Part shown: positions 14,730 through 63,018 of the stretch, piece after piece | Layout of the letters: each line of letters opens with the position of its first letter | Position numbering within the stretch: position 1 is the first letter of the stretch | DNA from: a virus | Lineage: Duplodnaviria > Caudoviricetes | DNA: 63,018 nucleotides | Virus record (IMG/VR): IMGVR_UViG_3300048838_000780 | Coordinates: 1 to 63,018 of that record | Reading direction: 5' to 3' (one strand) | Translations under genes and position numbers: made by a program | The notes under the pieces: model-generated | What the model was told of the DNA's origin: nothing | Seen by the model: the letters and a program-made list of their open reading frames with translations, nothing else | Database searches by the model: none

Positions 14730-15281
14730 ATGCCAAAGAACAAGACGGATCTAAAGCCGCAAATATTGGAACGGTTGGCAAGGGGTGAAGAATTGGCCGA
14801 AATTTGCGAAGCCTTGGCAATTTCCGTCCGGACGGTCCAAGATTGGAGGAACAAGGACCAGGACTTCGCCTTGCTTTATTCGTCCGTTGCAGATCGACAA
14901 GCGGAAGCCAAGGCGTCTTTTCTCCTTGTCCTGGAAAAGTCCTTGGGGATCGTCCAAACCGCTTGCAAGAAGGCGCAAATTTCCCGGACCACGTTTTACA
15001 CCTGGAAGAAGTCCGACCCCGATTTCGCGGCGGCCGTCGAAGAAGTCCAAAACGTCGCCTTGGACTTTGCGGAAGAAGCGTTGTTTAAGGCAATCCAAGA
15101 AGGGAATATTTCGGGAATTATCTTTTATCTGAAAACAAAAGGCAAGGACCGGGGGTACGTCGAACGCCAAGAAGTCGTCGGATCCCAAGTTAAGCCCCTG
15201 GAAGTTTCGTTAACCCTTTCGGCCAAGGATCTTTCTTCGGACGATCCCGACCCGGAAGAAGAAGGGTCGGACAATGACTAA
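14730..15281 (+). CDS. terS: Terminase small subunit (two HTH motifs)
   Basis: Two HTH repeats and IFYLKTKGKDRGY; directly upstream of TerL. Confidence 0.8.
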   Translation: MPKNKTDLKPQILERLARGEELAEICEALAISVRTVQDWRNKDQDFALLYSSVADRQAEAKASFLLVLEKSLGIVQTACKKAQISRTTFYTWKKSDPDFAAAVEEVQNVALDFAEEALFKAIQEGNISGIIFYLKTKGKDRGYVERQEVVGSQVKPLEVSLTLSAKDLSSDDPDPEEEGSDND

Positions 15282-41667: not shown

Positions 41668-41705
41668 AGCCCGGTCCGATTTTTTCGGGTCGGGTTTTTT
41701 CTTTT
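41668..41705 (+). terminator. Rho-independent terminator
   Basis: GCCCGGTCCGA...TCGGGTCGGGT stem with T tract. Confidence 0.65.
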
Positions 41706-41742
41706 CCCGGAAAAAAAACTTGCCCTTTTTTTTGGATAAAAA

Positions 41743-41773
41743 TTTGGATAAAAAGAAAATGGTAGTATATTTG
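41743..41773 (+). promoter_or_regulatory. Bacteroidota-type (early) promoter
   Basis: TTTG 41743-41746, 19-nt spacer, TATATTTG 41766-41773. Confidence 0.7.
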
Positions 41774-41811
41774 TTGCTGTTGTTACGCTTATATCACTAA
41801 ACAATCTTGCA

Positions 41812-42300
41812 ATGAACAGCTTAAATCTTGAGCGCTTCCGGAACATCATTCTTGGGGATCCTTCCCCGTCCGCTTTGGATATTCGTACCAAGATCCAAGA
41901 AGTAGCGCAAATTGCCAACCGGCTAAACGACCTTGCATCGGAGGAAGAAAATTGGCGCAAGGCGTCCGCCTTGGGTACCTTGGCCTTGGACCTCCAAAAA
42001 GCCTTGGAAGTTTTTTACCTGGAATACAACGCGGCCGAACTTTGCCGCAAGACCCGGGACCATTTGGTCGAAGTCGGTTGGGAAGGCTTCGTCCAAATGT
42101 TACCCAAGGAATACCTTTCGATTGTGGATGCAATCGACCTCAAGTTTGGATCGGCCGATAACCCCTTCGAAGAATTCGTCTTCGACTTCGATTGGCATTT
42201 GGTCCCCTTGTCCGGATCGGATCCCCGAAAGTGGATCCCTGAAGATTGGGAAACGCTTTGTCGGCATTTTTCGGCAACCTATACAATGATTTTTCGCTAA
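41812..42300 (+). CDS. Hypothetical protein
   Basis: 162-aa ORF after the promoter. Confidence 0.65.
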   Translation: MNSLNLERFRNIILGDPSPSALDIRTKIQEVAQIANRLNDLASEEENWRKASALGTLALDLQKALEVFYLEYNAAELCRKTRDHLVEVGWEGFVQMLPKEYLSIVDAIDLKFGSADNPFEEFVFDFDWHLVPLSGSDPRKWIPEDWETLCRHFSATYTMIFR

Positions 42301-42355
42301 CCAGGGGGGGGACCTTCCCCCCTTCTTCATTCTTTCAACCAAAACTATCTTACCA

Positions 42356-42727: not shown

Positions 42728-42747
42728 AAAGTATGGAAATGGAAAAC

Positions 42748-42874
42748 ATTTGGAAAGACGCGACTACTTATTCCCGTAACGACAAAGACCGGATCCCTTC
42801 CGTCTTCGAATACCAAAACGGGGGGCTTTGTATTACAGTGGTCCGGGGTCACCGTTTCAACCCGGAAAATTGGG
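42748..42874 (+). repeat. 127-bp exact direct repeat, copy 2 of 1-127
   Basis: Direct comparison. Confidence 0.97.
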
Positions 42875-43326
42875 GCGTGTGCGTAAACGGTGAATGCGAA
42901 TGCCCGCCACAATGGACCGGGCCCAGCTGCTCCCAGGAGGTGACGCCGGTCAAAATGCGGGTAACGTACATTGCTCTCAACTCCTTCCCTCCTACCGACG
43001 GCAACGGCGCCGGCTGGGATCTGTTCGACGGGCCAGACGTGTACCTCTCTATCTGGAAAGATGGAGTGCAGCTGTACAAATCCAATTGGTACGAAGATCT
43101 TACCATTGGCGCATTTTGGGAAACCAACTTTGAATTTTCCGACCCAACGGCAACCTATAATCTCCGCGTCTACGATTACGACGACGGCATTACCGCGGAT
43201 GACCTCATGGGATGGATTGATTTCACGCCGTACCGCCCAGGGCAGAAGTTTCCCACCTCCTACCCTGTCAGCTGCTCGGGATGTATCGTTTCTTTCGAAT
43301 TTACTGGCGTGTCCTACTTCCATTAA
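42874..43326 (+). CDS. 3' part of an EGF-like domain lipoprotein (5' part at 62793-62891)
   Basis: Joined sequence CEGIICNNG+GVCVNGECECPPQWTGPSC gives a six-Cys EGF pattern. Confidence 0.85.
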   Translation, partial: GVCVNGECECPPQWTGPSCSQEVTPVKMRVTYIALNSFPPTDGNGAGWDLFDGPDVYLSIWKDGVQLYKSNWYEDLTIGAFWETNFEFSDPTATYNLRVYDYDDGITADDLMGWIDFTPYRPGQKFPTSYPVSCSGCIVSFEFTGVSYFH

Positions 43327-48692: not shown

Positions 48693-49047
48693 TTGGCACT
48701 AATGGCACAAAAGGGGGTGTTTATAGGTATAAGAAAGTATATAAAGTATTGATTATTATATTATTAGTATTAGATAGTTAGTATAACAAATAGTGCCAAA
48801 TCGTGCCAAAAAAGGGGCAGTTCGTGCCAAAAATGTTGCAGTTCGTGCCAAAAAAGTGGCAGTTCGTGCCAAACCGATATATGAAGGTTTCTTCATTAGT
48901 GCCAAATTTGGGCAGTTCGTGCCAAAAAGTTTTTTTTCAATGTTTACGCAGGTTTCAGCCGAAATCGTGCCAACTTGTGCCAAATTAAAAAAACGCTGGA
49001 ACACTTATAAACACAGGCCGACCCGCGAGTTAGTGCCAAAGTGCCAA
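48693..49047. repeat. GTGCCAA iteron cluster with AT-rich tract, probable origin of B
   Basis: 11 direct copies (four at an exact 21-bp period: 48803, 48824, 48845, 48866), inverted copies at 48693 and 48703, AT-rich 48720-48790. Confidence 0.8.
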
Positions 49048-50236: not shown

Positions 50237-50314
50237 ACACCTTATCCCAAACCTCCTACGCAGTAAGACAAAACCGTTTGGAAGTGTGCAACGCCTTGTT
50301 TTACATTGGTGCCC

Positions 50315-50764
50315 ATGAGGACAAACCAGATTCTCAATTACGCCGGCATCGCCGCACTATTCTATGTCATCGCCACCAATCTGGGGGGCTGGCTGACATC
50401 AAAAATTTCCATTGGCTCCATCAAAATGAAGCTGGGCCAAACATCTCCGACAGGGCAGACCCTTACCCTGTTTATTCCCGTCAAAAACTCCGCTCCGGTA
50501 TCTTACCCGCTCGAATCTTTCCAGGGTATGCTCTTTTGGGGCACTAACCCGCTGGCCCAGGTGATCATTAACCAGGAGGTGACAATTGCGGGCAATGGTA
50601 CTACCGAAATTCCAGTAAATGTATTCATACCGTTTGCCAACCTGGGCACCCAGCTGGTAAACATCATATCGGCCGGCGACTGGCTGGCAGGCGCAAAGAT
50701 CAAAGGCCTGCTCCGCGCCGGTGGCGTTAACGTACCTATTGAGCAAACTATCCAACTGCTGTAA
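50315..50764 (+). CDS. Membrane-anchored LEA_2/WHy-like beta-sandwich protein
   Basis: N-terminal TM; VKN..P...L...G pattern; IAGNGTTEIPV. Confidence 0.6.
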   Translation: MRTNQILNYAGIAALFYVIATNLGGWLTSKISIGSIKMKLGQTSPTGQTLTLFIPVKNSAPVSYPLESFQGMLFWGTNPLAQVIINQEVTIAGNGTTEIPVNVFIPFANLGTQLVNIISAGDWLAGAKIKGLLRAGGVNVPIEQTIQLL

Positions 50765-51390
50765 TGGATCTCAAACGCATTGCCGACCGATACATACGGA
50801 AGACCTCCAACAGGGAGGAAACGATCTTTGAAAATGGCGACACCGAAGACATTATTTCTGTGATCCTTCGCGCCGACGGTATGGCCGCACATTTTACGGA
50901 GCAATTCGCGCCGTATCTCCGGGGCCAGACCACGAAGGAAACCGCGGAAAACGTCTGGAACTTCGTAAAAGCTCACATCCGCTACCGAAAGGATAGGGTA
51001 GGGCATGAGCGGGTAAAAAGCCCTGGCAAGCTCTGGGAAGACGGAGAAGGCGACTGTAAAAGTTACAGCGTGTTCATGGCATCGATCTACCGCAACCTGG
51101 GCATTACCTACAAATACCGCTTTGCTCATTACCCAAACGGCCGGCTGGATCGGGATGTAAACCACGTGTTTCCCGTGGTGATCGACCAGCGGGGGCATGA
51201 GATCCCTACCGACGCCGTGGCCGATTACTTCAATTATGAGGAGCCTTATGAATACGCCATAGACTACGATCCAAACACCGGCCAGCAGGCAATAAATGGC
51301 CTTTCTGGCTTTCAGATACCGACCTGGTTTAAATATGCCTTGGCCATTTTGCTGGGTATCGGTATTTGTAAATGGGCAAACGATAAATGA
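50764..51390 (+). CDS. Transglutaminase-like cysteine protease with C-terminal TM
   Basis: GDCKS (Cys), NHVFPV (His) and PTDAV (Asp) triad; WNFVKAHIRY helix. Confidence 0.8.
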   Translation: MDLKRIADRYIRKTSNREETIFENGDTEDIISVILRADGMAAHFTEQFAPYLRGQTTKETAENVWNFVKAHIRYRKDRVGHERVKSPGKLWEDGEGDCKSYSVFMASIYRNLGITYKYRFAHYPNGRLDRDVNHVFPVVIDQRGHEIPTDAVADYFNYEEPYEYAIDYDPNTGQQAINGLSGFQIPTWFKYALAILLGIGICKWANDK

Positions 51391-52436
51391 CAAAAATCAG
51401 CTACATACACGGAATAGGCGCCACCGCTGAAGAGCGCAAGCAAAGAGCCGCTGAAGTTCCCGGGCCGTCTCTGATCGATTACACGAAATGGACGGAGGGA
51501 GAGCTCCAGCTCGTGCTTTTGGCCGAGCAGATCAATATGCTGGCCGCCTACGCTCCGGAAGACAAAGAGCTGCAAAAATCCAAACAGATCCTCCAGGATG
51601 TGCTTTACCGTGGTGTACACCGCGCCGGTGGCCTGCCTGGCGGCATCTTCACCGGCCGCCTGGCTACCGTGCTGGCAGCGATCAGAAACGCCAGGCAACT
51701 GGCACGGCCGGCAGCGGGGGAGATCACCGGCCGCAAAAACGGCATCTCCGGAGGTATCGGAGATCCGATCATACCATACGAAGACTGCCAGGTAGTGGTT
51801 GACGATCCCAACGACCCGCTGGGCGCCTGGACCTACACAGACGCCGCCTGTGTGAAAAGAAACGAGATCAAAAAGATCCTCAACGACAACCTGGAAAACT
51901 CCGCTCACCATATCCTCTACGACTTTGTGGCCAATCCCAACCTCACCCCGCCCATTGTCGCAGTGAAGACGCAAAACCACCGGGCCGCCCGCGCCACCTT
52001 GTCGCAGATCTCCAAACTGAGCTCCACCAGTCTGAAAATGTGGATTCGTAATGGAGTGATCCGGAACAACATTGCCCAGGGCGCCGGCGCCATACAGCCG
52101 GAGGATACCATTGCAACGCTCAAATCTGGCGCAATAGCTGGCATCGGCGAGCCGCTGACGGCCGCCGCCCTGGTGGCGATCATCAAGGCCATTGCTGCCG
52201 CCATTTCTGCAGCCAGCGCCCTGGTATTGCTCCTGAAGCAAAAAGACCCGCAAACCGCCGCACTGTGGAACCAGCTCCAGGGCATTGGTACCGGCGTTTT
52301 CGGACCTGAGCAAAACGACTGGTATACGGGAGCTGGAGGAGGAAACGAAACGCAGCCAGGCACTGCCGGCGATATTGAAAAACTTTTGCCCTATGGCCTG
52401 ATCCTGGCTGGGGCGTATGTACTAATTGAAAATTAA
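51387..52436 (+). CDS. Putative virion membrane protein
   Basis: Ala-rich hydrophobic helix, C-terminal TM, four (I/L)xG(G/I) motifs. Confidence 0.65.
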   Translation: MTKISYIHGIGATAEERKQRAAEVPGPSLIDYTKWTEGELQLVLLAEQINMLAAYAPEDKELQKSKQILQDVLYRGVHRAGGLPGGIFTGRLATVLAAIRNARQLARPAAGEITGRKNGISGGIGDPIIPYEDCQVVVDDPNDPLGAWTYTDAACVKRNEIKKILNDNLENSAHHILYDFVANPNLTPPIVAVKTQNHRAARATLSQISKLSSTSLKMWIRNGVIRNNIAQGAGAIQPEDTIATLKSGAIAGIGEPLTAAALVAIIKAIAAAISAASALVLLLKQKDPQTAALWNQLQGIGTGVFGPEQNDWYTGAGGGNETQPGTAGDIEKLLPYGLILAGAYVLIEN

Positions 52437-52445
52437 TCGATCAAC

Positions 52446-52877
52446 ATGAAAAATCCATTCATCTACTCAATTCTGCTGGCCGTGGTGGTGATCATCGCCA
52501 TGGTATTCCTGCCCAGCGCCAACGTGGAAAAAGCCCGCCCGAATCGCTACGAATCGACCAGCATCGATACGCTGGTAGAAAGCGAAAGCGCCACGTTTAC
52601 CATTCCGGATATTATCCGAAACCAGGTAGCCTATTTTTTTCAGGTGACGGTTGCACAGGACAGCTTTGCAACCGACGCCATTGCCATCGTGAAGGAAAGC
52701 GCATGGGATACGGAAAACCGCTGGAGCAACAAAGACACGCTCACTATCAGCGGAGCGGGCACCTTTGGCATAGAGGGGGTAACAAATGCCGCCAGGCTTA
52801 TGATCGAAATTCAGACCGACACCACCAACCAGCAGGGGCGCTATTGGCTAGCTGGAACGCTGGTGGAAACCTTCTGA
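52446..52877 (+). CDS. Signal-peptide beta-rich protein
   Basis: Hydrophobic leader; resembles 30181-30735. Confidence 0.7.
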   Translation: MKNPFIYSILLAVVVIIAMVFLPSANVEKARPNRYESTSIDTLVESESATFTIPDIIRNQVAYFFQVTVAQDSFATDAIAIVKESAWDTENRWSNKDTLTISGAGTFGIEGVTNAARLMIEIQTDTTNQQGRYWLAGTLVETF

Positions 52878-52879
52878 CG

Positions 52880-53023
52880 ATGAAAAAGCAAAACCGCCGC
52901 CGCCTGAGTTTTCCCGAAGCCACGGCCGTAGTGGCGCCGCTGGCGCCGCCTGCCACGCCGAAGAAGAAAAAAGCCAAGGCCAAGAAGAAGAATTTTATAA
53001 CCAAAACCGATAACAACGCATGA
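52880..53023 (+). CDS. Small basic protein
   Basis: KKKKAKAKKK; ATGA-coupled to the next gene. Confidence 0.5.
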   Translation: MKKQNRRRLSFPEATAVVAPLAPPATPKKKKAKAKKKNFITKTDNNA

Positions 53024-53238
53024 AAGGACAGATCTCCGCGCCTGCCGTCTCCAGGAAGGTTGGCAAGCGCACGTACAAAAGGCTCACTTGCCACACCACC
53101 GTAGCAGCGGCAAAAAAGCGGAAAACCAGCCTCAACAAGGGTGGATACTCCGCAATGGTCGTTGGAAAATGTGTCTACAAAGGCCCGAAGCTGAAGACCG
53201 CAAGAAAGAAAACCGCCCGCCGTCGTCGCAGGGCATAA
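53020..53238 (+). CDS. Small highly basic protein (core/DNA-binding candidate)
   Basis: K/R-rich, ends ARKKTARRRRRA. Confidence 0.6.
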   Translation: MKGQISAPAVSRKVGKRTYKRLTCHTTVAAAKKRKTSLNKGGYSAMVVGKCVYKGPKLKTARKKTARRRRRA

Positions 53239-53266
53239 CCATTTCATCAATCAAAATCATTCAATT

Positions 53267-53638
53267 ATGGCCTGTTCTGTTTGTCAGAAAAGCCGAAAAC
53301 GAATCAACGGTATGAAAAAGACCAATCTCACCAAAACGCTGGGCGACGTGGCAGCGGGCACCGCTGGCCTGGTTGCCGCCCAGATGCTCAACAAAATCTC
53401 CTTCATCGGAGCCAACCCCATGATTGGGGGCGCTGTAAAGATCGTCGGGGGCGCCGTGCTCGCCGGCTCGACCAAAGGCATTATGCAAAAGGTCGCCATG
53501 GGCGTTGCCCTGGGTGGTGGCGTTGACCTGGCCACCAACTTCATCGCGCCGAAGGTCGAAGGCATTGGCTACCTGGGCACCCGTGGCGGATCCACGTCGG
53601 TGGCCAACGTGGCCGGATATGGTCCGATCGTGGACTAA
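53267..53638 (+). CDS. Gly/Ala-rich virion membrane protein
   Basis: Glycine-zipper helices; directly upstream of the capsid candidate. Confidence 0.65.
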   Translation: MACSVCQKSRKRINGMKKTNLTKTLGDVAAGTAGLVAAQMLNKISFIGANPMIGGAVKIVGGAVLAGSTKGIMQKVAMGVALGGGVDLATNFIAPKVEGIGYLGTRGGSTSVANVAGYGPIVD

Positions 53639-53685
53639 CGAAGAATCAACCATTTCTCTAACCCAAACAATAACACATCAAGACA

Positions 53686-54447
53686 ATGAAGAATCTTGAG
53701 CATAAATCCGGATCGATCGTTTACACGCCGGACGTAAACCGCGCCGCGTACAACCGTTTCCTGGCGTTTCTCTCCATGATCAGCCCGGGGGTTGAGTTCA
53801 TCATCACCCCGTTCTACATCCGCCTGGAGCAGGCCCTGAGCGCCACCAAGAGCAAATACACCTTCTCGTTCTACGAGAACCAGGGCTCCGACCGCCAGCA
53901 GGAAATCAAGCTGAACAGAAACGACCTGTTCATGATGACCCATGCCGGCCTTTGCCTGGCCAAACAGGACATTACCGCCGGCGACTACGGCAACTACCTG
54001 CCGCATTCCTTCCCTGATCCGAACTACTTCTCCGGCCTCTCCGGTGGTGTGAATGAGTTTGAATGCCTGAACACCGTGTACAACGGCAAACTCAACTTCC
54101 TCACCAAACCGGTGCAGCGGATCGAGAACCTGAGCACGGTACCGTTCCTGAAGATCCCGCAACAGCAGACGTTCCTCACAGCGGGCAGCCAGCTGAACGA
54201 CGAGCCGGCCGAGTTCCGCCTCAACGACGTGCTGGTAGATCTCCAGCCCAACCTCATCCTCTCCGGCCAGGAAAACCACCAGGTAGAGCTGGAGCTGGGC
54301 GCCGGTACCACCACGCTGATCGCTGGCGGTTTCGACAACAGCGGCAACGCCGTTGACACGTCGAACATCGCCATTTTCTTCGGCGTGGGCTATAAAGCCG
54401 TCAACGCTGCCACCGCCGCCAGCCGGTGGGCCGTCGGTGCGTATTGA
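53686..54447 (+). CDS. Candidate major capsid protein (jelly-roll type inferred)
   Basis: 253 aa, beta-rich and soluble, strongly C/G-ending codons, followed by a terminator; fold not verified. Confidence 0.55.
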   Translation: MKNLEHKSGSIVYTPDVNRAAYNRFLAFLSMISPGVEFIITPFYIRLEQALSATKSKYTFSFYENQGSDRQQEIKLNRNDLFMMTHAGLCLAKQDITAGDYGNYLPHSFPDPNYFSGLSGGVNEFECLNTVYNGKLNFLTKPVQRIENLSTVPFLKIPQQQTFLTAGSQLNDEPAEFRLNDVLVDLQPNLILSGQENHQVELELGAGTTTLIAGGFDNSGNAVDTSNIAIFFGVGYKAVNAATAASRWAVGAY

Positions 54448-54464
54448 TCCATCACTCTCATAAT

Positions 54465-54498
54465 AAAAGCCTGGGGGGGAACACCTCCCCAGCTTTTC
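54465..54498 (+). terminator. Terminator after the capsid candidate
   Basis: AAAAGCCTGGGG...CCCCAGCTTTT. Confidence 0.6.
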
Positions 54499-54513
54499 TA
54501 AAACTGGACGACC

Positions 54514-54984
54514 ATGCAACAAGCATATGCAACACCCGCCCGGCTGGATTCGCTGAAGATCGCCGGCGTGGTTCCCAAGTCTACCAGCATTGAGGTGGTG
54601 ATCCCTAACGCGACTGGTAAATACTACCTGCCCGATTCCGACATTTTGCGCGGCAAAAACATCGTAGGCATTATCTGCCAGGTGCAAACCCAGGTAGGTG
54701 GCGCCGACACCGTTTTTACGCCGTCGGGCCGCACGGTGGTAGACCAGCAGGTTATCAATGACGCCACGCTAACGCTGGAATCTGACAGCCTCCGCGTGCT
54801 GGATGAGCACCCGCTCAACCATTTCGTGATCAACAACACGGGAGACAGGAAATACACCGCCCTGGATGGGATCCGTGGTTTCAACCCCACCAAATCCTAT
54901 ATCCTGATCGGCAACCCCGCCGCGCCGGCTGGTAAGCTGGTGACGGATGAGGCCTTTCTCCTGCACTTTCTCTACACAGACTAA
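54514..54984 (+). CDS. Candidate minor capsid/penton protein
   Basis: 156-aa beta-rich ORF after the capsid candidate. Confidence 0.45.
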   Translation: MQQAYATPARLDSLKIAGVVPKSTSIEVVIPNATGKYYLPDSDILRGKNIVGIICQVQTQVGGADTVFTPSGRTVVDQQVINDATLTLESDSLRVLDEHPLNHFVINNTGDRKYTALDGIRGFNPTKSYILIGNPAAPAGKLVTDEAFLLHFLYTD

Positions 54985-54996
54985 ACCGCTACCAAT

Positions 54997-55743
54997 ATGG
55001 CAATGCCAACCCTTGACGGATTAAAAGAGTGGTTCTTTCTCCAAACCAAAGAAGGGCAGCCCTGTGGCTGGCGCCTCTTCCGCGGATCGAACACCAACAA
55101 AAATTATGATGGTGGATCTGCTGAAAGCGAAAACCCGGAAATAGGCTGGGAAAAGCTCCGCGCCCACCTGGAGGCCGAAGAGTGGGAGCCCGGCGAACAA
55201 GTTACCATCCGTGTATACGGCAATGGTAAACTGAACGGTGGGGGCTCCGATATCATTTACCGGCCGATCTCCAGGCATCAAACGAGGGTAGGCATTGCCG
55301 GTATTGGTGGCGGGATCGGAGGAGATCCCCAGGCTTACATTGCCCAGCAGGTAAGCAAGGAGATAGAGCTCTATGACCTACGCCGGCAGGTGCAGGATCT
55401 GGAGCAGGCATTGAACGAGAAAAGCAGCGTAGTGGACAGGGTGATCAACACCGTGGTGGAACATCCCAACTTTGACCCCAACACTTTGGTAAACGGTATC
55501 GGCGCACTGCTCATGAACCTGATACCCCAGCGGGCCAACGTCGGGGTGCAGGGCTTTGGCCAGCCGACGGCGCCGCACACCGGCGAACACTCTGCCCAGG
55601 CAGACCGCATTGCAGGCGCCCTCAATCGCTTGCAAGCGCACTTCCCGGAGCAACCAATTGAGATCTTATTGGAAAAACTGGCTGATTTCGTGGACAGCAA
55701 CCCCACAGTGGCCAAGAACGTGTTAACCAACCTTTTCAAATGA
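54997..55743 (+). CDS. Putative virion protein with coiled coil
   Basis: Three (I/V)xGxG motifs. Confidence 0.6.
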   Translation: MAMPTLDGLKEWFFLQTKEGQPCGWRLFRGSNTNKNYDGGSAESENPEIGWEKLRAHLEAEEWEPGEQVTIRVYGNGKLNGGGSDIIYRPISRHQTRVGIAGIGGGIGGDPQAYIAQQVSKEIELYDLRRQVQDLEQALNEKSSVVDRVINTVVEHPNFDPNTLVNGIGALLMNLIPQRANVGVQGFGQPTAPHTGEHSAQADRIAGALNRLQAHFPEQPIEILLEKLADFVDSNPTVAKNVLTNLFK

Positions 55744-56060
55744 AACCAGTGGTAGACGGGCACATAGTACAGGAGTTTTCGCTCAAAACGCGCCAGATCA
55801 ACGAACCTGGAAAAATTTCCATCCGTGCCAACAGCGTAACCCTTTGGAATACGGGAACCAATACGGTTATCCTGGATAATGTGTTTGAGATCCCGGCCGG
55901 TGCCTCTTTCCAGTTCGGAGATAACAACCTGCTCAACATGATCGTGCAGGAGTTCAACGTGAAGTTTTCCGGCGCTGGAACGGACAAACTGCAAATAGCT
56001 GAAGTAATTGTAAACGACAGGCGCCTGGCGCACTACGTCGAGCGCCCGACGGCAAAATAA
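55740..56060 (+). CDS. Small beta-sandwich structural protein
   Basis: SVTLWNTGTNTVIL...IPAGASF. Confidence 0.55.
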   Translation: MKPVVDGHIVQEFSLKTRQINEPGKISIRANSVTLWNTGTNTVILDNVFEIPAGASFQFGDNNLLNMIVQEFNVKFSGAGTDKLQIAEVIVNDRRLAHYVERPTAK

Positions 56061-56067
56061 ACCATGT

Positions 56068-56397
56068 ATGAGCTTCATTGGATGCAACCCAGCCGGAGGA
56101 TCTGGAAGCGGTGGCGGTGGCGAAACGCCAACAGCCGACACCCTGACCATTACCAGCGGTGAAAATACCACCGATTTCAACCGCGCAGCTGGGGCCCTCA
56201 AATTTAAGATCACCAACGCAGGCCCGGCAGCCGGCGGCACGGCCGACACCGCCACGGTGAACGGCGCCAACCTGTTTCCCGGCGATAGCCTGGAGTTTGA
56301 GGCGAAGCTCGACCCAGTGAACAATGTTTTCAAGACCCTCCCGGCAATGACAATTGTCACCAACGGGGCAACGCTGTTCTGGTATGAAGAAAGGTAA
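56068..56397 (+). CDS. Small beta-sandwich structural protein
   Basis: FKITNAG...LFPGDSL. Confidence 0.55.
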   Translation: MSFIGCNPAGGSGSGGGGETPTADTLTITSGENTTDFNRAAGALKFKITNAGPAAGGTADTATVNGANLFPGDSLEFEAKLDPVNNVFKTLPAMTIVTNGATLFWYEER

Positions 56398-56953
56398 AGT
56401 GTGGAGTTTTCTCATAGTAATTTCCCTCATCGGACTGAGCCCGGCAATTGGCTGGGCTCAATTCCCTTTCTACGACATCGAGCTGGAGCCGGTATGTGCC
56501 GACAGCGCCGGCGTACAAACCACGCTGTACAGCGCCCAGCTGTACGTTTTGGGCCGGAATGGATTTGATGTTGTGTACCAGTACTATTTCGACCAGGCGG
56601 GCAACAAGGTAACGCCTGGAGGTGGCGTAACGATCTCCCCAGGGGCCTGCTGGGAGCAGGTGACGGAAGACACCGCCCAGGTGCTCACCTTCGAAAGCGC
56701 CTTTTCTGGGGGAGACTACACAATACCAGGCGATACCTACGATTGGGTAAGCATCGTTAACCAGGGGGGCACTACCCACCTGATCACCTTTCCGGCCAGC
56801 GGGGGCACTATGCGCCTGCTGCCCGGAGAGGCCTATTATTTTCGCTCGCACTTCGACGAGTTTTACCGGAAGCGCATGAGAAACCCCACCATTGTGATCA
56901 GCCAGGGGGTGGCAGGATTGAATAACCTAAGAGTATACGCCGAGGCAAAATGA
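56384..56953 (+). CDS. Signal-peptide protein (spike candidate)
   Basis: Leader ends in GWA-Q; VSIVNQG...LLPGEAY resembles the two preceding small genes. Confidence 0.65.
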   Translation: MKKGKVWSFLIVISLIGLSPAIGWAQFPFYDIELEPVCADSAGVQTTLYSAQLYVLGRNGFDVVYQYYFDQAGNKVTPGGGVTISPGACWEQVTEDTAQVLTFESAFSGGDYTIPGDTYDWVSIVNQGGTTHLITFPASGGTMRLLPGEAYYFRSHFDEFYRKRMRNPTIVISQGVAGLNNLRVYAEAK

Positions 56954-58800
56954 AAAGGGTAGCACTATTCATATTTTTGGTTTTTTGGGGGTTCTTTCAG
57001 GCTGGATACGGGCAAGGAAGCGAGACAAGGTATGACGTGGAGTATGCCCGTATCTGCCTGATTGATAGCATCGCGCCGGATACGCTGGTACAGTTCTGGC
57101 GTTTCACCCAGGCGAACAATCCCGGCGCCCTGGCCCTGGATTATACTTTTGACCTGGCCGGGGGCTACACCGTGGCCGGTACCGTCCTCCCCTGCTGCTC
57201 CTGCCTGACGGCTGCCAGCGATACCGCCGGTTTTTCTCCCTGCCAGCCAACCGGTATAGGTTGGGGCTGGAAAATTGCCATTGCTCTGGTGCTTTTGCTC
57301 GCTGCCAGCTGGCTGATAAGTGTATGGGGCCTGCTCGAATTTGGCAGGCGATACCAGAAGGCCGCGAGAATCGCGTATATCCTACTTATATCCATCCTGT
57401 TTTCGTACAGCTCACTCTCAGCGCAATCAGAAACCACCTACGATGTGGAATATCAGTGCATTTGTCTGGTGGATAGCATCGCGCCGGGAAACGTGGTTCA
57501 ATTCTGGCGTTTCACCCAGGCCAACAATCCCGGCGCCCTGGCCCTGGATTATACTTTTGACCTGGCCGGGGGCTACACCGTGGCCGGTACCGTCATGGGC
57601 TGCAATGATTACTACCTGGGGGATAATGTGAATAGTGGAGGGGGTACCGCTGGCACGTTGCCGATCTGGACGGGGGCTAATACGCTGGGGAATAGCAGCC
57701 TTTCGGAAGCGAGCGGTGTGCTTTCTTCGAGCCTTACCGGGGCGCTGAAGCTGCCAGCGGGGACGGATGCACAGGACCCGGTTTGGAGTACTGGGATGTT
57801 GAGGTACAATACTACTACTGCCGGATTACAAGGCTATAATGGTGCAGAAAGATATTTACCATGGTCAGACAATGACAATTTTACTACTGCTTATATTCCG
57901 TACAGTAATGGATCATCACTTACAACTAGTGCCGATTTGGGCTTTTACATTGTTACTGGCAGTAATAGATTAGGTGTTCTTAATGCAAAATTAGGTACTA
58001 CATATGCCGGAACAATTAGAGGCCGATTAGATGTATCTGGGCAGGCTGGCGATCATACATCATATTTTGAATGCACAGGAAGCACTTTTTCTTCATCTAT
58101 TTTTAGTGTTAACACTAACGTAAATGGATGGGGTCCATTTTTCGTACTTCCAGAAAACAGCAATAAACCTAATCTTTTTTTAGGAGAGTCTAACACCATT
58201 CAAAGAACAAGCCAAAAAGAAACAATCAAAATATCAGGAAATAACAGCACAAATAATAATGGTAATTTTTTTGTGGGTGTTAATGGTGGCAAATCAATTT
58301 CATGGGAATATTCTCGATCTATAGGACCATCAGCCCAGCCATCATATAAATTTGAATCTGCACGTATTGTTCCTATATGCACAGCAAATGTATATGGGGA
58401 TATGGAAACAGGTTTAAGGTTTTATAACACTGTGGCCAACACGCTTACATATACTGCTCAGCTAGATAGTGCGGGGTTGATTCTTCCGTTGTACGCACCC
58501 GGAACGCTTACCGGAACGCCCGCCACTACTGCCGCTTTCAATTCTTCGGGGCGTCTTATTCAGGTACCAGAAAAATGGGCCGCCATCTCCACCTCCACCG
58601 ACGCCAGCGGAGACATCGTAGTAGCCCACGGCATGGGCGCCACGCCGACCAGTGTACAGGTAACAGTAACCGGCACCACGCCGTATGTGGTGACAGTCCA
58701 CAGTATAGACGCCACTAATTTTACAGTAAGGTTTTACGATATGACAGGGGCAGCGGTGGCATCCACCGCGGTAACCGCCACCTGGCACGCAAAAACATAA
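56950..58800 (+). CDS. Fibre/spike protein with two signal peptides and a duplicated N-terminal domain
   Basis: See finding; LPAGTDAQDP fibre motif; C-terminal VAHGMGATPTSVQVT domain. Confidence 0.75.
   Translation: MKRVALFIFLVFWGFFQAGYGQGSETRYDVEYARICLIDSIAPDTLVQFWRFTQANNPGALALDYTFDLAGGYTVAGTVLPCCSCLTAASDTAGFSPCQPTGIGWGWKIAIALVLLLAASWLISVWGLLEFGRRYQKAARIAYILLISILFSYSSLSAQSETTYDVEYQCICLVDSIAPGNVVQFWRFTQANNPGALALDYTFDLAGGYTVAGTVMGCNDYYLGDNVNSGGGTAGTLPIWTGANTLGNSSLSEASGVLSSSLTGALKLPAGTDAQDPVWSTGMLRYNTTTAGLQGYNGAERYLPWSDNDNFTTAYIPYSNGSSLTTSADLGFYIVTGSNRLGVLNAKLGTTYAGTIRGRLDVSGQAGDHTSYFECTGSTFSSSIFSVNTNVNGWGPFFVLPENSNKPNLFLGESNTIQRTSQKETIKISGNNSTNNNGNFFVGVNGGKSISWEYSRSIGPSAQPSYKFESARIVPICTANVYGDMETGLRFYNTVANTLTYTAQLDSAGLILPLYAPGTLTGTPATTAAFNSSGRLIQVPEKWAAISTSTDASGDIVVAHGMGATPTSVQVTVTGTTPYVVTVHSIDATNFTVRFYDMTGAAVASTAVTATWHAKT
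57094..57594 (+). repeat. 93-bp direct repeat (57094-57186 and 57502-57594, one mismatch)
   Basis: Both copies encode FWRFTQANNPGALALDYTFDLAGGYTVAGTV. Confidence 0.92.
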
Positions 58801-58806
58801 CCACGC

Positions 58807-59457
58807 ATGAAACAGATATTCCTCTTTTTACTCCTCCTCCCCTTCCTCGCTCCCGCGCAAAGCGATCTGGAAGTTACCGACGTGCTCCAGGAGATCGTCG
58901 AAGATGCTGGCGTGTACTACGTCGTCACCACCACTAAGTTTTCAGCAGGTCCGCCGCAGGTAATACCGCAGAAGATCGGAGGACGCCAGGAAATGCTTAC
59001 CTATGCCCAGACAGCCGCCGTAAACCAGCAGCAGGCCATTGCCGCCGCCAGGCGGGTAGTGGTAGAAGACGCGCCGATAGCCTTCCGGCAATTCCTTGGC
59101 CTGGACACGCTTATCAGGGAGATTACCGGGGGAGATACTACCATATACGACCTCAACGCCGGTAGCTACTTCGCACAGTACGAAGGGCGCTACCGCGTCA
59201 GATCGGCCAGCGGGGTAACGGACTACACCGCCAAGATTATACGCCTGGCCAATGGCCAGCTACGCCTGGAGCGGGAAAGCGACGGGGTAAGATACAGCCT
59301 GCTGGTGCTCAGCCCGAAAAGTTTCCGGCTGGTGAACATACCGATAGGCAGCGTACCGGCTGCCGTGTACGACATGAGCGAGATCAGCCCAATGCCCGAC
59401 GGCAAGCCCAGGTACCGGGATGAAACGCGCATTTTCACCATTGTGAAGCTGGAGTAA
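58807..59457 (+). CDS. Signal-peptide protein
   Basis: MKQIFLFLLLLPFLAPA-Q. Confidence 0.7.
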   Translation: MKQIFLFLLLLPFLAPAQSDLEVTDVLQEIVEDAGVYYVVTTTKFSAGPPQVIPQKIGGRQEMLTYAQTAAVNQQQAIAAARRVVVEDAPIAFRQFLGLDTLIREITGGDTTIYDLNAGSYFAQYEGRYRVRSASGVTDYTAKIIRLANGQLRLERESDGVRYSLLVLSPKSFRLVNIPIGSVPAAVYDMSEISPMPDGKPRYRDETRIFTIVKLE

Positions 59458-59879
59458 TGGCCGCGTACCTGCTCCGCATCCTCGGCAGCCTGGCCGCCAT
59501 GTTTGTGGCGGGCTTCATGAACCAGGCCAACGACATTGCCGGAAATGTGGTATGGTACCGCGAAAGCATATTCCCCCAGCCTGGCGAAAGCGCCGGGGCA
59601 TTCTGGGGCACCCAGGGAGAAACCTGGATCAACAAATGGGCAATCAACGAAGCAGGGGCGCCGCTGGTCGGCACGGAGCGGTTTTTGTTCTCCTCTACCC
59701 TGCTGGTCTGGCTTACAGACCTCTGGCATTTCTCGAAGAGCTGCCAGATACTGGCATTCCAGGCGGCTGTACTGCTGTACCGCCGCCCAGATAAAAAAAT
59801 ACTCTACCTGGCCGATCTGGTCGCGCTGAAAATCGCCTTTTCGGCAGGCTGGTACGCCGGAAACGTACTATTGAGATGA
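59457..59879 (+). CDS. Membrane protein with DxWHFSK motif
   Basis: LTDLWHFSK; resembles 40026-40409. Confidence 0.7.
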   Translation: MAAYLLRILGSLAAMFVAGFMNQANDIAGNVVWYRESIFPQPGESAGAFWGTQGETWINKWAINEAGAPLVGTERFLFSSTLLVWLTDLWHFSKSCQILAFQAAVLLYRRPDKKILYLADLVALKIAFSAGWYAGNVLLR

Positions 59880-60148
59880 CGCAAGACAAAACCGTGAACA
59901 TGAGCCCATGGGCCTGGATACTCGACCTGCTGAAAAAGCAGGGCCTTTCTTTCGTGTTGTTGGGCTTTGCCGTCTGGTATTTTTACGGAGAGGTGAAACG
60001 GCTGGAGGAGAAAGCGGATCTGTGCCAGTCAAAGATTATTACCCTCTACCAGGAGGTGATTATCAGGAATACGCACACGCTGGAGGATGTTACGTGGTAT
60101 TTGGATGAGCTGTACCAAAACAAGGATAGACAGAAAAATAAAAAATGA
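59876..60148 (+). CDS. Holin-like protein
   Basis: One TM plus coiled coil, upstream of the amidase. Confidence 0.55.
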   Translation: MTQDKTVNMSPWAWILDLLKKQGLSFVLLGFAVWYFYGEVKRLEEKADLCQSKIITLYQEVIIRNTHTLEDVTWYLDELYQNKDRQKNKK

Positions 60149-60151
60149 TCT

Positions 60152-60403
60152 ATGCGAAACTTATTGCTTTTTGGAATTGGTGTATTGGTCGGCATGGAGC
60201 TGGCCAAAAGCAGGAAGGCCAGCCAGACGCCGGCCGACAACAGCCCGGCACTGACCGACAACCAGACGCCGACAATGGGGGGCCTGTACCAGTACAACCC
60301 GAGCGGATTGAAAGGAGCAATCCCCTATCAGCCATACGGCGTACGCTGGGGCTCCGGCAATCAATATTTAGACACGACGAAAAAGGCGCAGCTGGCAATA
60401 TGA
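60152..60403 (+). CDS. Small membrane protein
   Basis: N-terminal TM; ATGA overlap with the amidase start. Confidence 0.6.
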   Translation: MRNLLLFGIGVLVGMELAKSRKASQTPADNSPALTDNQTPTMGGLYQYNPSGLKGAIPYQPYGVRWGSGNQYLDTTKKAQLAI

Positions 60404-60951
60404 AGCTGAAGCCCTGGCAATGGATTGGCCTGGGGGGAGGGTTGCTTTTCCTCTGGCAAAAAATGCAAGCCGCTGGTATGGTGAACATCATCGACATAAC
60501 GAAGAAATTGCCCAAAGGATCGGGCTCCTACCCTTCCAGGCCGTTGGAAGCTATCAATATGTTCGTGCTGCACCATAGCGCCACCACCAGCGGAGATCCT
60601 TGGGCCTATGCCAGGTATCACGTGGAAAACAATGGCTGGCCAGGCATTGGCTACCATTTTGTGATCCAGAAAGACGGCACCGTTTACCAGACCAACAAAC
60701 TAACCACCGCCAGTTACCACGCCAGTGGAGTGAACAGCCAAAGCGTGGGCATTTGCCTTACTGGCTTTTACGACAACACCCAGCCGCCACCGGCTCAATA
60801 TAATGCCCTGATCGGGCTATTTCGGCTTCTTCGGGATACGCTCGGCCAAAAACCGATTTACGGACACAATAAGTTTTCTTCCAAATCCTGCCCTGGCTCG
60901 GCTCTCGATGTTGCAGGCATCGAGGCCGAAGCATGGGGCCTAAATGTGTAG
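60400..60951 (+). CDS. N-acetylmuramoyl-L-alanine amidase (Amidase_2/T7 lysozyme type) with N-terminal TM
   Basis: VLHHSA, GWPGIGYHF, SVGICLTG and GH...KSCPG motifs. Confidence 0.92.
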   Translation: MKLKPWQWIGLGGGLLFLWQKMQAAGMVNIIDITKKLPKGSGSYPSRPLEAINMFVLHHSATTSGDPWAYARYHVENNGWPGIGYHFVIQKDGTVYQTNKLTTASYHASGVNSQSVGICLTGFYDNTQPPPAQYNALIGLFRLLRDTLGQKPIYGHNKFSSKSCPGSALDVAGIEAEAWGLNV

Positions 60952-60953
60952 CC

Positions 60954-61544
60954 ATGCCAGGAGGAGTAGTTCTTTCCGGAACACCGGGCCAAATTGCCCA
61001 GGTCGTCATTGTAGGCAGCCAAGCCAGCAGAACCGCCCAGGAATCGGCGCTTATTGCCGCCGCTAACCAGGCATGGTTTGCCCTGCCGGCAGATATGGAC
61101 CTCCCGATCTGGCCAGACGGCGCCGCCGTCGTCGAGGCCGGCGTATTTCCGAAGTCTGCCAACGTCAGGCCCGGCCAGGTGCTCTATGCGCAATACAAAG
61201 ACGGTGGCAATTGGGAGATCCGCGCCCGGCTCGAATGGCCCAGCATGGTGGCTATGAAAGATACCTACCTGGCTGTCCTGCTCAACCAAAACCTCCCGGC
61301 TACCGGCCAGGAGTTTCAACCAGAAGAAGACAAAAAGCTCTCTCTGGGGCTCGGGCTGTTCAATCTGTGGATACCGGATTTCCTCCCAAACCTCCCTCCT
61401 CTCGTCTGGCTGCTCATTGCCCTACTCTCCGGATATGGCGCCTATGAGAAAAAGAAAATCGTGCCACGGGTGGCCCTGGGCGCCGTGGCGTGGATCGCCG
61501 CCGCCAAATTCATCCAGTCTAACCAAAAAAATATCCGCTTATGA
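60954..61544 (+). CDS. Membrane protein
   Basis: Two C-terminal TM helices. Confidence 0.6.
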   Translation: MPGGVVLSGTPGQIAQVVIVGSQASRTAQESALIAAANQAWFALPADMDLPIWPDGAAVVEAGVFPKSANVRPGQVLYAQYKDGGNWEIRARLEWPSMVAMKDTYLAVLLNQNLPATGQEFQPEEDKKLSLGLGLFNLWIPDFLPNLPPLVWLLIALLSGYGAYEKKKIVPRVALGAVAWIAAAKFIQSNQKNIRL

Positions 61545-61939
61545 AAAAGATCCTCGCTCTGTTTTCTCTTCTGCTGATCGCCATTATGGCATTTGCCCAG
61601 CAGGCCGTTGGCGATACCATTGTATTGCCTGATCCCCTTGGGCCCAGCTCTACCCTGCCCGATTTCCTCAACCTTTACAGCCTCCTGGAGGGCGCTGTAA
61701 TCGTCATACTCGGATATCTCCATAACTGGATCCCGGGTTTGAATCTCATACCGGCAAAATGGTTCCGTATTGTGCTTATTGGCGCCGGGGTGGGGGTTAT
61801 TTTCGTAGCCCTGGGATTCGCCAATGGTATCGGCACCGTCTTTGTATTTTTGCAGGCCGTTGGCTTTTATTCCCTTATCCTGAAGCCGGTGGCGCCCAGC
61901 CCTCCCGTACCTCCCAAACCTGAAAAAACCGGCAGATGA
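61541..61939 (+). CDS. Signal-peptide multi-TM protein
   Basis: Leader ends in AFA-Q, then three TM helices. Confidence 0.65.
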   Translation: MKKILALFSLLLIAIMAFAQQAVGDTIVLPDPLGPSSTLPDFLNLYSLLEGAVIVILGYLHNWIPGLNLIPAKWFRIVLIGAGVGVIFVALGFANGIGTVFVFLQAVGFYSLILKPVAPSPPVPPKPEKTGR

Positions 61940-62247
61940 TCAAATTACCCGACAATCCAGGCGCCCGCCGGTGGCTGCAAATCAACTGGCGAATTACTGA
62001 CGCATTCGGCGCAATCGAAAAAGAGGGCAGCCTCAAACTATACACCAGCCGTTGGGCTTTCGGTGAGCCTTACCTGCTGCTGGAGGTGATCCAGGAGCTG
62101 GGAAGAAACCCCAAAGAGTTTCTGGGCAATCGATCACGCCTGAATATTACTTGGTCCACGTTGCCAGTGCCCCACCCTCTTAGCACAACTGAAGAAGGTT
62201 TCCGGGAATGGTTCAAAAAAGAAAGCGCAGATGAAGAAGTCCGATAA
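61936..62247 (+). CDS. Hypothetical protein
   Basis: Coupled ORF. Confidence 0.55.
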   Translation: MIKLPDNPGARRWLQINWRITDAFGAIEKEGSLKLYTSRWAFGEPYLLLEVIQELGRNPKEFLGNRSRLNITWSTLPVPHPLSTTEEGFREWFKKESADEEVR

Positions 62248-62518
62248 CTTGCTCACCATTGGCCTGATCGGCGTGGGGATCTACCTGCTGACCAAACAGC
62301 AGCAGCCCAGGTACAATTACTACCCGCAATACCCGCAGATCCCACCGGCGCCGCCGCCCAATACGGCACAGTGGCAACAATGGGTAAGCCTGGTAGTAAA
62401 TTCCTTTGGCGCCGTGGCAAACCTCTGGGCGCCAGGTGGGCCGTTTTACAATCAACCACTCAACCAAACCCAGGCCATTGAAATAGGCCAGGGTACGGAT
62501 TATTCCGATTACGTATGA
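62231..62518 (+). CDS. Small membrane protein, P/Q/Y-rich
   Basis: N-terminal TM. Confidence 0.6.
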   Translation: MKKSDNLLTIGLIGVGIYLLTKQQQPRYNYYPQYPQIPPAPPPNTAQWQQWVSLVVNSFGAVANLWAPGGPFYNQPLNQTQAIEIGQGTDYSDYV

Positions 62519-62712
62519 TAGGCAAGAAAGTCTATATCCAAGATCTCGACCAGGTGGGCCGCGTCCGGTCAATGGCCGGCGAACAAATTGAAACCGTCGA
62601 AGTACAGACGCCGGACGGGCCCAAACTGGTTAACGTGCTGGAGAAGGGGTACAAGGTGATCAACCTGGTACTGGCTATCCTTCAGCTACTGTTGAAGTTT
62701 TTTGGGAAGTAA
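62515..62712 (+). CDS. Small protein with C-terminal hydrophobic helix
   Basis: Coupled ORF; weakly resembles 10570-10878. Confidence 0.6.
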   Translation: MIGKKVYIQDLDQVGRVRSMAGEQIETVEVQTPDGPKLVNVLEKGYKVINLVLAILQLLLKFFGK

Positions 62713-62792
62713 GGTTTCACAAATAGCGATGAAAAAATCCGGGGCGTTTGCTCCGGCTTTTGTATTTTCGGGAAAACCAAAACCTTTTCCCA

Positions 62793-62891
62793 ATGAAAAA
62801 AATCCTTTTCCTCGCCGGCCTACTGGCGCTGGCATCCTGCCAAAAAGATCCCCAGGAAAAACTCTGTGAGGGCATTATTTGCAACAATGGT
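62793..62891 (+). CDS. 5' part of the EGF-like lipoprotein
   Basis: MKKILFLAGLLALASC lipobox, then QKDPQEKLCEGIICNNG. Confidence 0.85.
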
Positions 62892-63018
62892 GAATACCTT
62901 TCGATTGTGGATGCAATCGACCTCAAGTTTGGATCGGCCGATAACCCCTTCGAAGAATTCGTCTTCGACTTCGATTGGCATTTGGTCCCCTTGTCCGGAT
63001 CGGATCCCCGAAAGTGGA
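62892..63018 (+). repeat. 127-bp exact copy of 42109-42235
   Basis: Direct comparison. Confidence 0.97.

Follow-up and report, generated by a model that had tools for sequence, protein, structure and literature searches.

A tail-anchored transglutaminase-fold enzyme and conserved glycine motifs in particle-type proteins of a putative tailless virus: a proposed maturation protease

We asked whether a tailless virus of bacteria could mature by cutting its particle proteins at adenovirus-like glycine sites with an enzyme of another fold. Maturation proteases are textbook knowledge for tailed phages, herpesviruses, adenoviruses, poxviruses and African swine fever virus. The question is raised by IMG/VR record IMGVR_UViG_3300048838_000780, whose whole assembly is a single contig of 63,018 bp; this entire stretch was analysed and is referred to below as the window. 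It holds a virus-like element, here called B, in which the gene of a transglutaminase-fold enzyme lies among late genes whose products of 349, 123 and 248 amino acids (aa) carry repeated motifs of the form hydrophobic-x-Gly-hydrophobic-Gly. An earlier note, made from the letters of the window, had suggested that a bacterial tailless virus may mature when this enzyme cleaves membrane or core proteins at an adenovirus-like consensus. Our answer goes in the same direction and is a tentative one: the enzyme may be a particle maturation protease that cuts hydrophobic-x-Gly-hydrophobic sites, the cleavage itself being proposed.

Motifs in three late proteins and the enzyme encoded beside them

All the motifs that the earlier note had listed are present in the translations. 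In the 349-aa open reading frame (ORF) they are IHGIG (aa 7-11), ISGG (aa 120-123), IAGIG (aa 250-254) and LQGIG (aa 297-301), referred to below as sites 1 to 4; in the 123-aa ORF they are INGM (aa 13-16), VEGIG (aa 97-101) and VAGYG (aa 115-119), and in the 248-aa ORF IAGIG (aa 100-104), VNGIG (aa 165-169) and VQGFG (aa 184-188). INGL is found in the enzyme itself (coordinates are collected in Table 1). The sites in the three ORFs all lie outside hydrophobic segments, namely in N-terminal leaders, in linkers, beside membrane segments or in a C-terminal tail, and the first residue of the nine five-residue sites is I or L in five and V in four. The capsid candidate at 53686-54447 has no five-residue motif, as the note had said, and the second candidate at 54514-54984 has none either.

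The motif exceeds what the Gly content of these proteins would give. In the three ORFs the pattern [ILV]xG[ILVFYM]G was counted 8 times; whole-protein shuffles gave an expectation of 0.76 and reached 8 in 0 of 300. Shuffling within blocks of 15, 25 or 40 aa left the expectation at 0.81-0.93, and 8 was again reached in 0 of 1000 shuffles for each block size. The pattern of the adenovirus protease adenain, (M/I/L)XGX-G or (M/I/L)XGG-X, used as written, was found 11 times in the same ORFs against 3.4 expected. In the late block of B as a whole (22 ORFs, 4046 aa) [ILV]xG[ILVFYM]G was counted 11 times against 2.5 expected (0/300 shuffles), compared with 4 against 5.5 in part A, the other part of the contig (11873 aa), and 1 against 0.26 in the early genes of B. 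In addition, GIG was the most over-represented of 8000 tripeptides in the late block of B (12 against 2.53, Poisson p 1.4e-5).

The enzyme matched the Pfam family PF01841 (Transglut_core) with E 2.2e-8 and 34.8 bits (cut-off 23), and PF01841 is annotated on most of its 59 homologues. The Cys-His-Asp triad that had been read from the sequence corresponds to C98 (in GDCKS), H134 and D150, and these are invariant in 28 of 28 aligned relatives with identities down to 35%. In the AlphaFold model (predicted local distance difference test, pLDDT, 91.8) a compact domain is followed by a low-confidence linker and a terminal helix (residues 187-207); residues 179-184, which overlap INGL-SGF, have pLDDT <50. 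There is no signal peptide, and the catalytic domain lies N-terminal to the tail anchor. Foldseek gave probability 1.00 to 3kd4 and 3isr (putative proteases), PNGase, LapG and TglA, and further fold neighbours were XPC/Rad4, PeiP (8z4f, rank 25), TG2, TG3, TgpA and a bacterial transglutaminase (TGase). We regard the transglutaminase-like fold of the modelled enzyme, which the earlier note had proposed, as certain. A Pfam scan at E<=0.1 returned only PF01841 and PF04473, which leaves the enzyme outside the bacterial transglutaminase-like cysteine proteinase (BTLCP) family, and tblastn against 50,697 phage records gave no match at E<=0.01.

Because proteases and non-proteases share this fold, it does not fix the chemistry of the enzyme. 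Among the proteases, LapG is a transglutaminase-like Cys-His-Asp enzyme that cuts LapA between Ala108 and Ala109 (described in part of PMC3032545). Since LapG does so, the fold of the enzyme is compatible with a site-specific protease acting between small residues. LapG shares the fold and the triad and is a fold neighbour of the enzyme (4u65_E with E 1.3e-4, also 4fgq and 4fgo, by Foldseek); the relation in sequence is marginal (E 0.073 for the profile of the enzyme alignment A2 against 4u65_E). LapG is a secreted, periplasmic protein that regulates an adhesin, whereas the enzyme of B is tail-anchored, viral and outside the BTLCP family. We infer that the enzyme is a protease. That it is instead a true transglutaminase or deamidase, which would cross-link or modify particle proteins for stability, seems to us very improbable. 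TG2, TG3, TgpA and the bacterial TGase are indeed among its fold neighbours, and Gln or Asn precedes Gly at site 4 in most members of the 349-aa family; at the sites of the 248-aa protein, however, A, N, S, G and Q precede Gly without preference, no conserved Gln-Lys pair is evident, and most studied bacterial members of the transglutaminase-like superfamily are hydrolases.

The enzyme and the motif were found together, a point that the earlier note had proposed to check: the enzyme gene stands directly upstream of the motif-bearing 349-aa gene in 13 of the 13 loci that extend far enough upstream (L004, a 14th, is too short). In the window the stop of the enzyme gene overlaps the start of the 349-aa gene (ATGA). 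P0023 (539 aa) and a protein of L014 (567 aa; L014 9325-11028) are fusions of the two. The identity between these fusions is only 33%; neither has the anchor of the enzyme, and each keeps M-T-x-I-S-Y-I-H-G at the junction. We also predicted the complex of enzyme residues 1-186 with residues 1-130 of the 349-aa protein, which scored 0.33 (runs 0.33, 0.11 and 0.41; best control 0.00), with contacts agreeing in at least 56% between the runs and a partner pLDDT of at least 51. The mark for this score was reached by 58 of 80 solved complexes and by 2 of 110 mismatched pairs, counts that are only rough here because custom alignments were used; scores <=0.60 that pass the mark came from only 7 of the 80 solved complexes and from both passing mismatches. 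Complex prediction thus lends weak support to a contact between the enzyme and the 349-aa protein.

The sites are tied to the enzyme only by gene neighbourhood, by the fusions and by this weak complex score. This would fit a motif that is a targeting or docking tag for particle loading, or the site of a host protease, with the enzyme not its reader. The position of the motif at N-terminal leaders and linkers of particle-type proteins would suit such a tag, and no covariation among the sites indicates one co-evolving specificity pocket. We nevertheless consider it improbable, since the strictly invariant triad implies that the enzyme is under selection as a catalyst, the enzyme co-occurs with the motif-bearing families at every testable locus, and the motif also stands in the linker of the enzyme itself.

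Conservation of the sites across protein families

The 349-aa protein belongs to an unannotated family. Pfam gave no match for it and nothing consistent across all members of the 349-aa and 248-aa families, the profile of its alignment A1 found only designed proteins among PDB sequences (E>0.1), and its ESM Atlas model was poor (pLDDT 0.37), with uninformative matches. The N-terminal site is present as YI[HA]G[IVL] in 10 of 10 genomes. Site 3 is loosely kept in divergent genomes, as a small-x-V/I-x-G element before the first hydrophobic segment, and the QGIGTGxFGPE block of site 4 was found in 9 of 10 genomes. The family also conserves a GIGDP-LIPYEDC block. Its top glycines include those of the motif, G9 (96%) and G301 (100%).

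In the 123-aa family the first site is kept as K[IV]xG[MIT] in 8 of 10 genomes; in L001 the Gly is shifted by one residue, and L008 is without the motif. The two sites near the C-terminus are conserved in the form hydrophobic-x-x-Gly or V[AS]G. At the start of proteins of this family we also noted a conserved Cys pair (MACSVC, CCSTC, CCAAC), together with a basic stretch that lies just ahead of the K[IV]xGM site (window 53267-53300; L001-L014).

For the 248-aa family, 100 representatives were collected at E<=1e-3 with 50% clustering, and 94 of them (200-300 aa) were aligned with the protein of the window. P0036 (5212 aa, 12 stretches), a repetitive coiled-coil protein, was excluded, as were all other matches outside 200-300 aa. 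The best conserved glycines of the family are those of the motif, G186 (90%) and G102 (87%), and near-invariant columns in a 40-sequence alignment are W12, F13, G30, G102, G108, G186 and P236. The sites of the 248-aa protein sit in indel-rich linkers, and two of them, which are non-homologous, share one logo, [GAS][ILVM][ANSGQ]G[hydrophobic][GP]. The third site of this protein is kept in 8 of 9 genomes. Judged from these alignments, the family-wide core is hydrophobic-x-Gly-hydrophobic-(Gly/Pro), and hydrophobic-x-G-I-G is the form that it takes in the clade of the window.

With this wider pattern, [ILVM]xG[ILVMFY][GP], the number of motifs per protein was 2.29 in the 349-aa family against 0.36 expected (n=24), 1.05 in the 248-aa family against 0.16 (n=95) and 0.43 in the enzyme family against 0.13 (n=28). 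In the capsid-like family it was 0.03 against 0.17 (n=31), a depletion, with the motif in 1 of 31 members. The sequences within a family are related, and these ratios are therefore not independent counts. As to the motif in homologous genomes, the expectation of the earlier note held for the conservation of positions within families and failed for the counts over whole late blocks, where 8 of 9 related loci show no excess of five-residue patterns; L001 is the sole enriched one (7 against 1.2).

That last result is one of several that weigh against our proposal. The GIG excess is marginal after Bonferroni correction (0.11). The four-residue core carries little information, and the 156-aa protein contains it too. 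The final Gly is clade-specific: outside the clade of the window its place is taken by Pro, which is equally common, or by Glu, Gln or Thr. A cut after the hydrophobic residue would be unfavourable, because Pro at the next position makes an X-Pro bond. The +2 residue shows no covariation between the two 248-aa sites (Fisher p 1.0 for Gly and 0.43 for Pro; 74 of 95 sequences usable). ISGG is absent from P0002, a relative of the 349-aa protein with 84% identity. Sites 2 and 4 of that protein are embedded in longer conserved blocks (GIGDPLIPYEDC and QGIGTGxFGPE) that look, from the sequences, like structural or functional elements, and site 4, which lies between hydrophobic segments, may be on the other side of the membrane. 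To these we add the weakness of the predicted complex and the non-proteases housed by the same fold: PNGase, true transglutaminases, the inactive XPC/Rad4 and the cell-wall isopeptidase PeiP.

The marginal GIG scan and the whole-block counts of the relatives, together with the fact that the motif was defined after the data had been seen, also speak for a motif that arises by chance or from the composition of Gly-rich, hydrophobic proteins. This is hardly credible and already largely refuted by the conservation, the block shuffles and the family-level counts: none of 1000 shuffles that keep local composition matched the count, large divergent families have the motif glycines among their best conserved residues, and two families have a ~6-fold excess while the capsid-like family is depleted.

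The proposed maturation protease and its nearest parallels

In the pathway that we propose, the tail-anchored enzyme would cut short exposed hydrophobic-x-Gly-hydrophobic-(Gly/Pro) sites. It would remove the leaders from the N-termini of the 349-aa and 123-aa membrane proteins and sever juxtamembrane linkers, its own included, by which domains would be freed or remodelled. The 248-aa scaffold-like coiled-coil protein would be dismantled by cuts at its inter-domain linkers, and the motif-free jelly-roll capsid protein would stay intact. We infer that the sites are the substrates, and with this the scissile bond and the timing of the cut.

The main competing explanation makes the enzyme a virion-borne cell-wall peptidase or amidase that sits in the viral membrane and serves to enter or leave the cell; in genome delivery it would work in a complex with the 349-aa protein, and the glycine islands would be hinges, turns or packing motifs. 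We judge it unlikely, though it has precedents. Membrane-containing phages usually carry peptidoglycan hydrolases in the virion, such as P7 of PRD1 and P5 of phi6 (in sections of PMC4468916). Like these and like PeiP and PeiW, the enzyme of B would be the particle-borne enzyme of a membrane phage, and PeiP, a pseudomurein endoisopeptidase, has the superfamily fold. The fusion of the enzyme to a membrane protein suits a delivery complex equally, the longer conserved blocks around sites 2 and 4 of the 349-aa protein would agree with it, and the related protein gp34 of phage SSIP-1 (see below) is annotated as structural, that is, in the virion. However, PRD1 P7, phi6 P5, PeiP and PeiW cut the cell wall and not viral proteins, and a role of this kind would not explain the motif on neighbouring proteins, least of all the logo shared by two non-homologous linkers of the soluble 248-aa protein, nor the depletion of the motif in the capsid-like family. 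Furthermore, B already has an Amidase_2 lysin, and the enzyme, without a signal peptide, carries its catalytic domain N-terminal to the tail anchor.

We compared the proposed maturation protease with adenain. Adenain (AVP) matures an icosahedral particle; it cuts minor, membrane-lytic, core and scaffold proteins at short hydrophobic-x-Gly sites and spares the major capsid protein (described in part of PMC3386624). The sites of the window fit hydrophobic-x-G-x-G, and in both cases a cysteine enzyme belongs to a tailless virus, the role in maturation being proposed in the present one. In contrast to adenain, which is of another family (clan CE), the enzyme is a Transglut_core protein, and the host is bacterial. 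Because the protease family differs, the system of B is not a member of the adenovirus system. The consensus is adenovirus-like only in part: hydrophobic-x-Gly-hydrophobic is kept, whereas Val, outside M/I/L, comes first in four of the nine sites, and the next position holds Gly or, frequently, Pro, so that the final Gly is not family-wide. The idea that membrane and core proteins carry the motif also needs an amendment, since the three ORFs carry it and the most basic, core-like protein of B (53020-53238) has no site.

A second parallel is SSIP-1, a cultured, tailless, membrane-containing phage whose gp34 is annotated as a structural protein in its GenBank record. This protein of 304 aa, the product of a late-block gene, has a linker between its Transglut_core domain (E 8.9e-7) and a hydrophobic tail at the C-terminus, and it is 27% identical to the enzyme of the window over 59 aa around the catalytic Cys (pairwise BLASTP E 2e-9). 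In the late block of SSIP-1 [ILVM]xG[ILVMFY]G was counted 9 times against 2.9 expected (1/300 shuffles), compared with 1 against 1.2 in the early block; several of the late-block sites are in hydrophobic, Gly-rich stretches. SSIP-1 thus resembles B in having a Transglut_core protein with a C-terminal anchor in a late block that is enriched for the motif. It differs in its genome of 43.8 kb, in its AAA-type ATPase gp40 and in the length of gp34 (the enzyme of B has 208 aa). As a separate observation, G-[ML]-G occurs 17-36 residues from the N-terminus in ORF36 (aa 17-19), gp37 (aa 34-36), ORF52 (aa 18-20) and gp53 (aa 31-33) of SSIP-1, and the linker of gp34 has a G-hydrophobic-G site as well (aa 211-213).

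The words protease and transglutaminase are absent from two surveys of prokaryotic double-jelly-roll viruses (PMC5894146, PMC9502842). In our literature search no phage was described as having a transglutaminase-fold maturation protease; the SSIP-1 paper and all supplements were outside the scope of the search and may bear on the point. The protease of the adenovirus/polinton branch is treated as a eukaryotic acquisition (in sections of PMC6260650). If our proposal is true, bacterial tailless viruses have their own convergent solution to maturation with a different protease fold, the motif is a sequence handle for particle proteins of uncultured viruses, and a new family of site-specific proteases becomes available. 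If it holds for SSIP-1 as well, proteolytic maturation at glycine sites would not be specific to the eukaryotic adenovirus/polinton branch. SSIP-1, which is cultured and has the same enzyme architecture in its virion, is a possible test system. The wider claim would be that B stands for an undescribed lineage of ~20-kb jelly-roll Bacteroidota viruses that have no packaging ATPase and mature via a membrane-anchored transglutaminase-fold protease, and that the pairing in the unrelated SSIP-1 makes this strategy widespread and independently evolved; we hold this to be conceivable but rather doubtful.

Element B, its capsid candidates and other genes

B looks like an autonomous, temperate, tailless, probably membrane-containing virus of ~20 kb from an undescribed lineage, with Saprospiraceae-type Bacteroidota as hosts. 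Its early and other genes include, by Pfam, an integrase catalytic domain (a fragment), an XRE-type repressor, a DUF3987 helicase, an HNH protein and the Amidase_2 lysin. The late operon (50306-62712, plus strand) is tightly packed, and almost none of its products has a Pfam or PHROGs match; for ten late proteins PHROGs gave no family, apart from one match with E 0.047. That the virus is tailless, as the earlier note had it, is plausible: terminase, portal and tail genes were found neither in B (Pfam, PHROGs) nor in the large ORFs of L003, L007 and L008, and there is a jelly-roll capsid candidate. Pfam gave no ATPase family, FtsK/HerA-type packaging ATPases included, among the late proteins. 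The only Walker A motif within a long ORF of B belongs to the DUF3987 helicase, and a packaging ATPase was therefore not found in B.

Table 1. Positions of element B and of its features in the window
Feature	Position	Strand	Basis or remark
Element B, ~20 kb temperate virus-like genome	42879..62891	+	repeat pattern in self-BLAST; Pfam matches
152-aa protein, first gene of the conserved block; stop overlaps enzyme start	50306..50764	+	borderline LEA_2
Enzyme, 208 aa, C-terminal hydrophobic helix (tail anchor)	50764..51390	+	PF01841, triad, model
Catalytic codons Cys98; His134; Asp150	51055..51057; 51163-51165; 51211-51213	+	invariant columns, alignment A2
INGL of the enzyme, aa 177-180, in the linker between catalytic domain and anchor helix	51292..51303	+	translation; Gly kept in 74% of relatives
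349-aa protein, soluble N-terminal part, C-terminal hydrophobic segments, unannotated family	51387..52436	+	24 homologues, alignment A1
IHGIG, aa 7-11, in conserved leader MTKISYIHG	51405..51419	+	Y6, I7 and G9 at least 90% conserved
ISGG then GIG, aa 120-125	51744..51761	+	G123 kept in 87% of relatives
IAGIG, aa 250-254, directly before first hydrophobic segment	52134..52148	+	G252 78%, G254 87%
LQGIG, aa 297-301, inside QGIGTGxFGPE between two hydrophobic segments	52275..52289	+	G301 invariant, G299 87%
72-aa protein, 33% Lys+Arg, candidate DNA-condensing protein	53020..53238	+	homologue in L001; no motif
123-aa Gly-rich hydrophobic protein	53267..53638	+	INGM 53303-53314, VEGIG 53555-53569, VAGYG 53609-53623
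253-aa jelly-roll capsid candidate, motif-free	53686..54447	+	model, Foldseek, VIA
156-aa protein, possible second capsid or penton protein	54514..54984	+	syntenic in related loci
248-aa soluble protein, central coiled-coil-like stretch, scaffold-like	54997..55743	+	IAGIG 55294-55308, VNGIG 55489-55503, VQGFG 55546-55560

The 253-aa protein is likely, from its model, a jelly-roll capsid protein. The model (pLDDT 83.9) is a beta-sandwich flanked by helices, and the top 10 Foldseek matches in the PDB are all viral jelly-roll capsid proteins (best E 1.7e-4, template modelling score ~0.3). Matches in BFVD were capsid proteins of iridoviruses and of circular Rep-encoding single-stranded DNA (CRESS) viruses. 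VIA gave the capsid protein 6oj0_T of Sulfolobus polyhedral virus 1 (SPV1) as the best match (Z 7.7, root-mean-square deviation 4.5, 156 residues aligned), where Z values of 7-8 are common for best matches even without true relatives. Pattern scans of IMG/VR with the protein or its alignment found no relatives. The capsid proteins of P23-77, HHIV-2 and HCIV-1, which like SPV1 are viruses with a single jelly roll and an internal membrane, ranked below that of SPV1. There is no sequence similarity to any of these four viruses, and the host of B is bacterial. SPV1 has, like B, a genome of ~20 kb and no packaging ATPase, and we know of no protease in SPV1, P23-77, HHIV-2 or HCIV-1. The basic 72-aa protein, the lack of an ATPase and the SPV1-like capsid match together hint at assembly around condensed DNA instead of pumping.

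For the 156-aa protein the nearest Atlas clusters are unnamed viral proteins, and a weak look-alike of a PM2 P2 domain (0.81) is a lead only. The LEA_2 match of the 152-aa protein has E 2.8e-5 and 24.9 bits (cut-off 25.4), and its gene is syntenic in related loci. In a late protein of 616 aa encoded further downstream (window 56950-58800), one segment is duplicated (57052-57186 and 57460-57594, 92.6% identical), and a hydrophobic, signal-like stretch precedes each copy; a role as spike or in receptor binding is possible.

Self-comparison of the contig showed that bases 1-131 recur at 42748-42878 (99.2%) and bases 42109-42235 at 62892-63018 (127 bp, 100%). These repeats are the trace of a figure-eight assembly graph in which a 770-bp segment is common to parts A (1-42747) and B (42109-62891). 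Either B lies between two 770-bp copies within A, or the assembler merged two separate circles, of 42.7 kb (A) and 20.8 kb (B). Part A has genes for a large terminase (Terminase_3 and 3C, 15274-16503), an Amidase_3 protein and long repetitive fibres, and is therefore a tailed phage.

Contigs with relatives of B proteins are mostly 19-29 kb long. Three relatives are on contigs of metagenome-assembled genomes that bear the labels Saprospiraceae, Bacteroidota and Chlorobiota; the contig of the first is 126 kb long, and the relative stands close to its end. Contigs ~90-97% alike, from four wastewater runs, join the right and left ends of B on one record. Record 1 of X1 has window 59857-61000 at letters 1-1138 and window 42874-43044 at letters 3042-3212, and it continues to 47748; the 1,903 intervening letters fit 61001-62891, as judged from their length, and leave no space for A or the 770-bp segment. 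Because contigs of relatives join the ends of B directly, B-like elements would be ~20-kb circles or tandems without A. The four runs gave no cover of window 41668-42334 and most of the shared segment, which proves nothing alone. No sequencing run contained more than 0.24 of the words of the stretch, and no RNA run was listed for it.

Some minor features of the window were also observed. A 31-bp direct repeat (96.8% identical, window 48801-48873) lies in the gene-poor stretch between the early and late genes of B and could represent iterons or an origin. A 197-aa protein with an EGF-like (epidermal growth factor) Cys-rich motif (window 42733-43326) straddles the right edge of the shared segment; its C-terminal parts therefore differ between the A and B paths. 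A homologue with 46% identity adjoins the B-like element in L013. In part A the fibre-like genes at 33361-36450 and 37168-40026 contain repeated modules of ~545 bp, with identities of 88-99% both inside each gene and from one gene to the other, and between these two genes a protein with 32% Gly is encoded (36437-37165). Finally, a 700-aa NACHT-domain protein (E 4.3e-7; L007 5609-7711) is encoded just upstream of the B-like element on a 36-kb contig; it may act in defence and belong either to the host or to the element.

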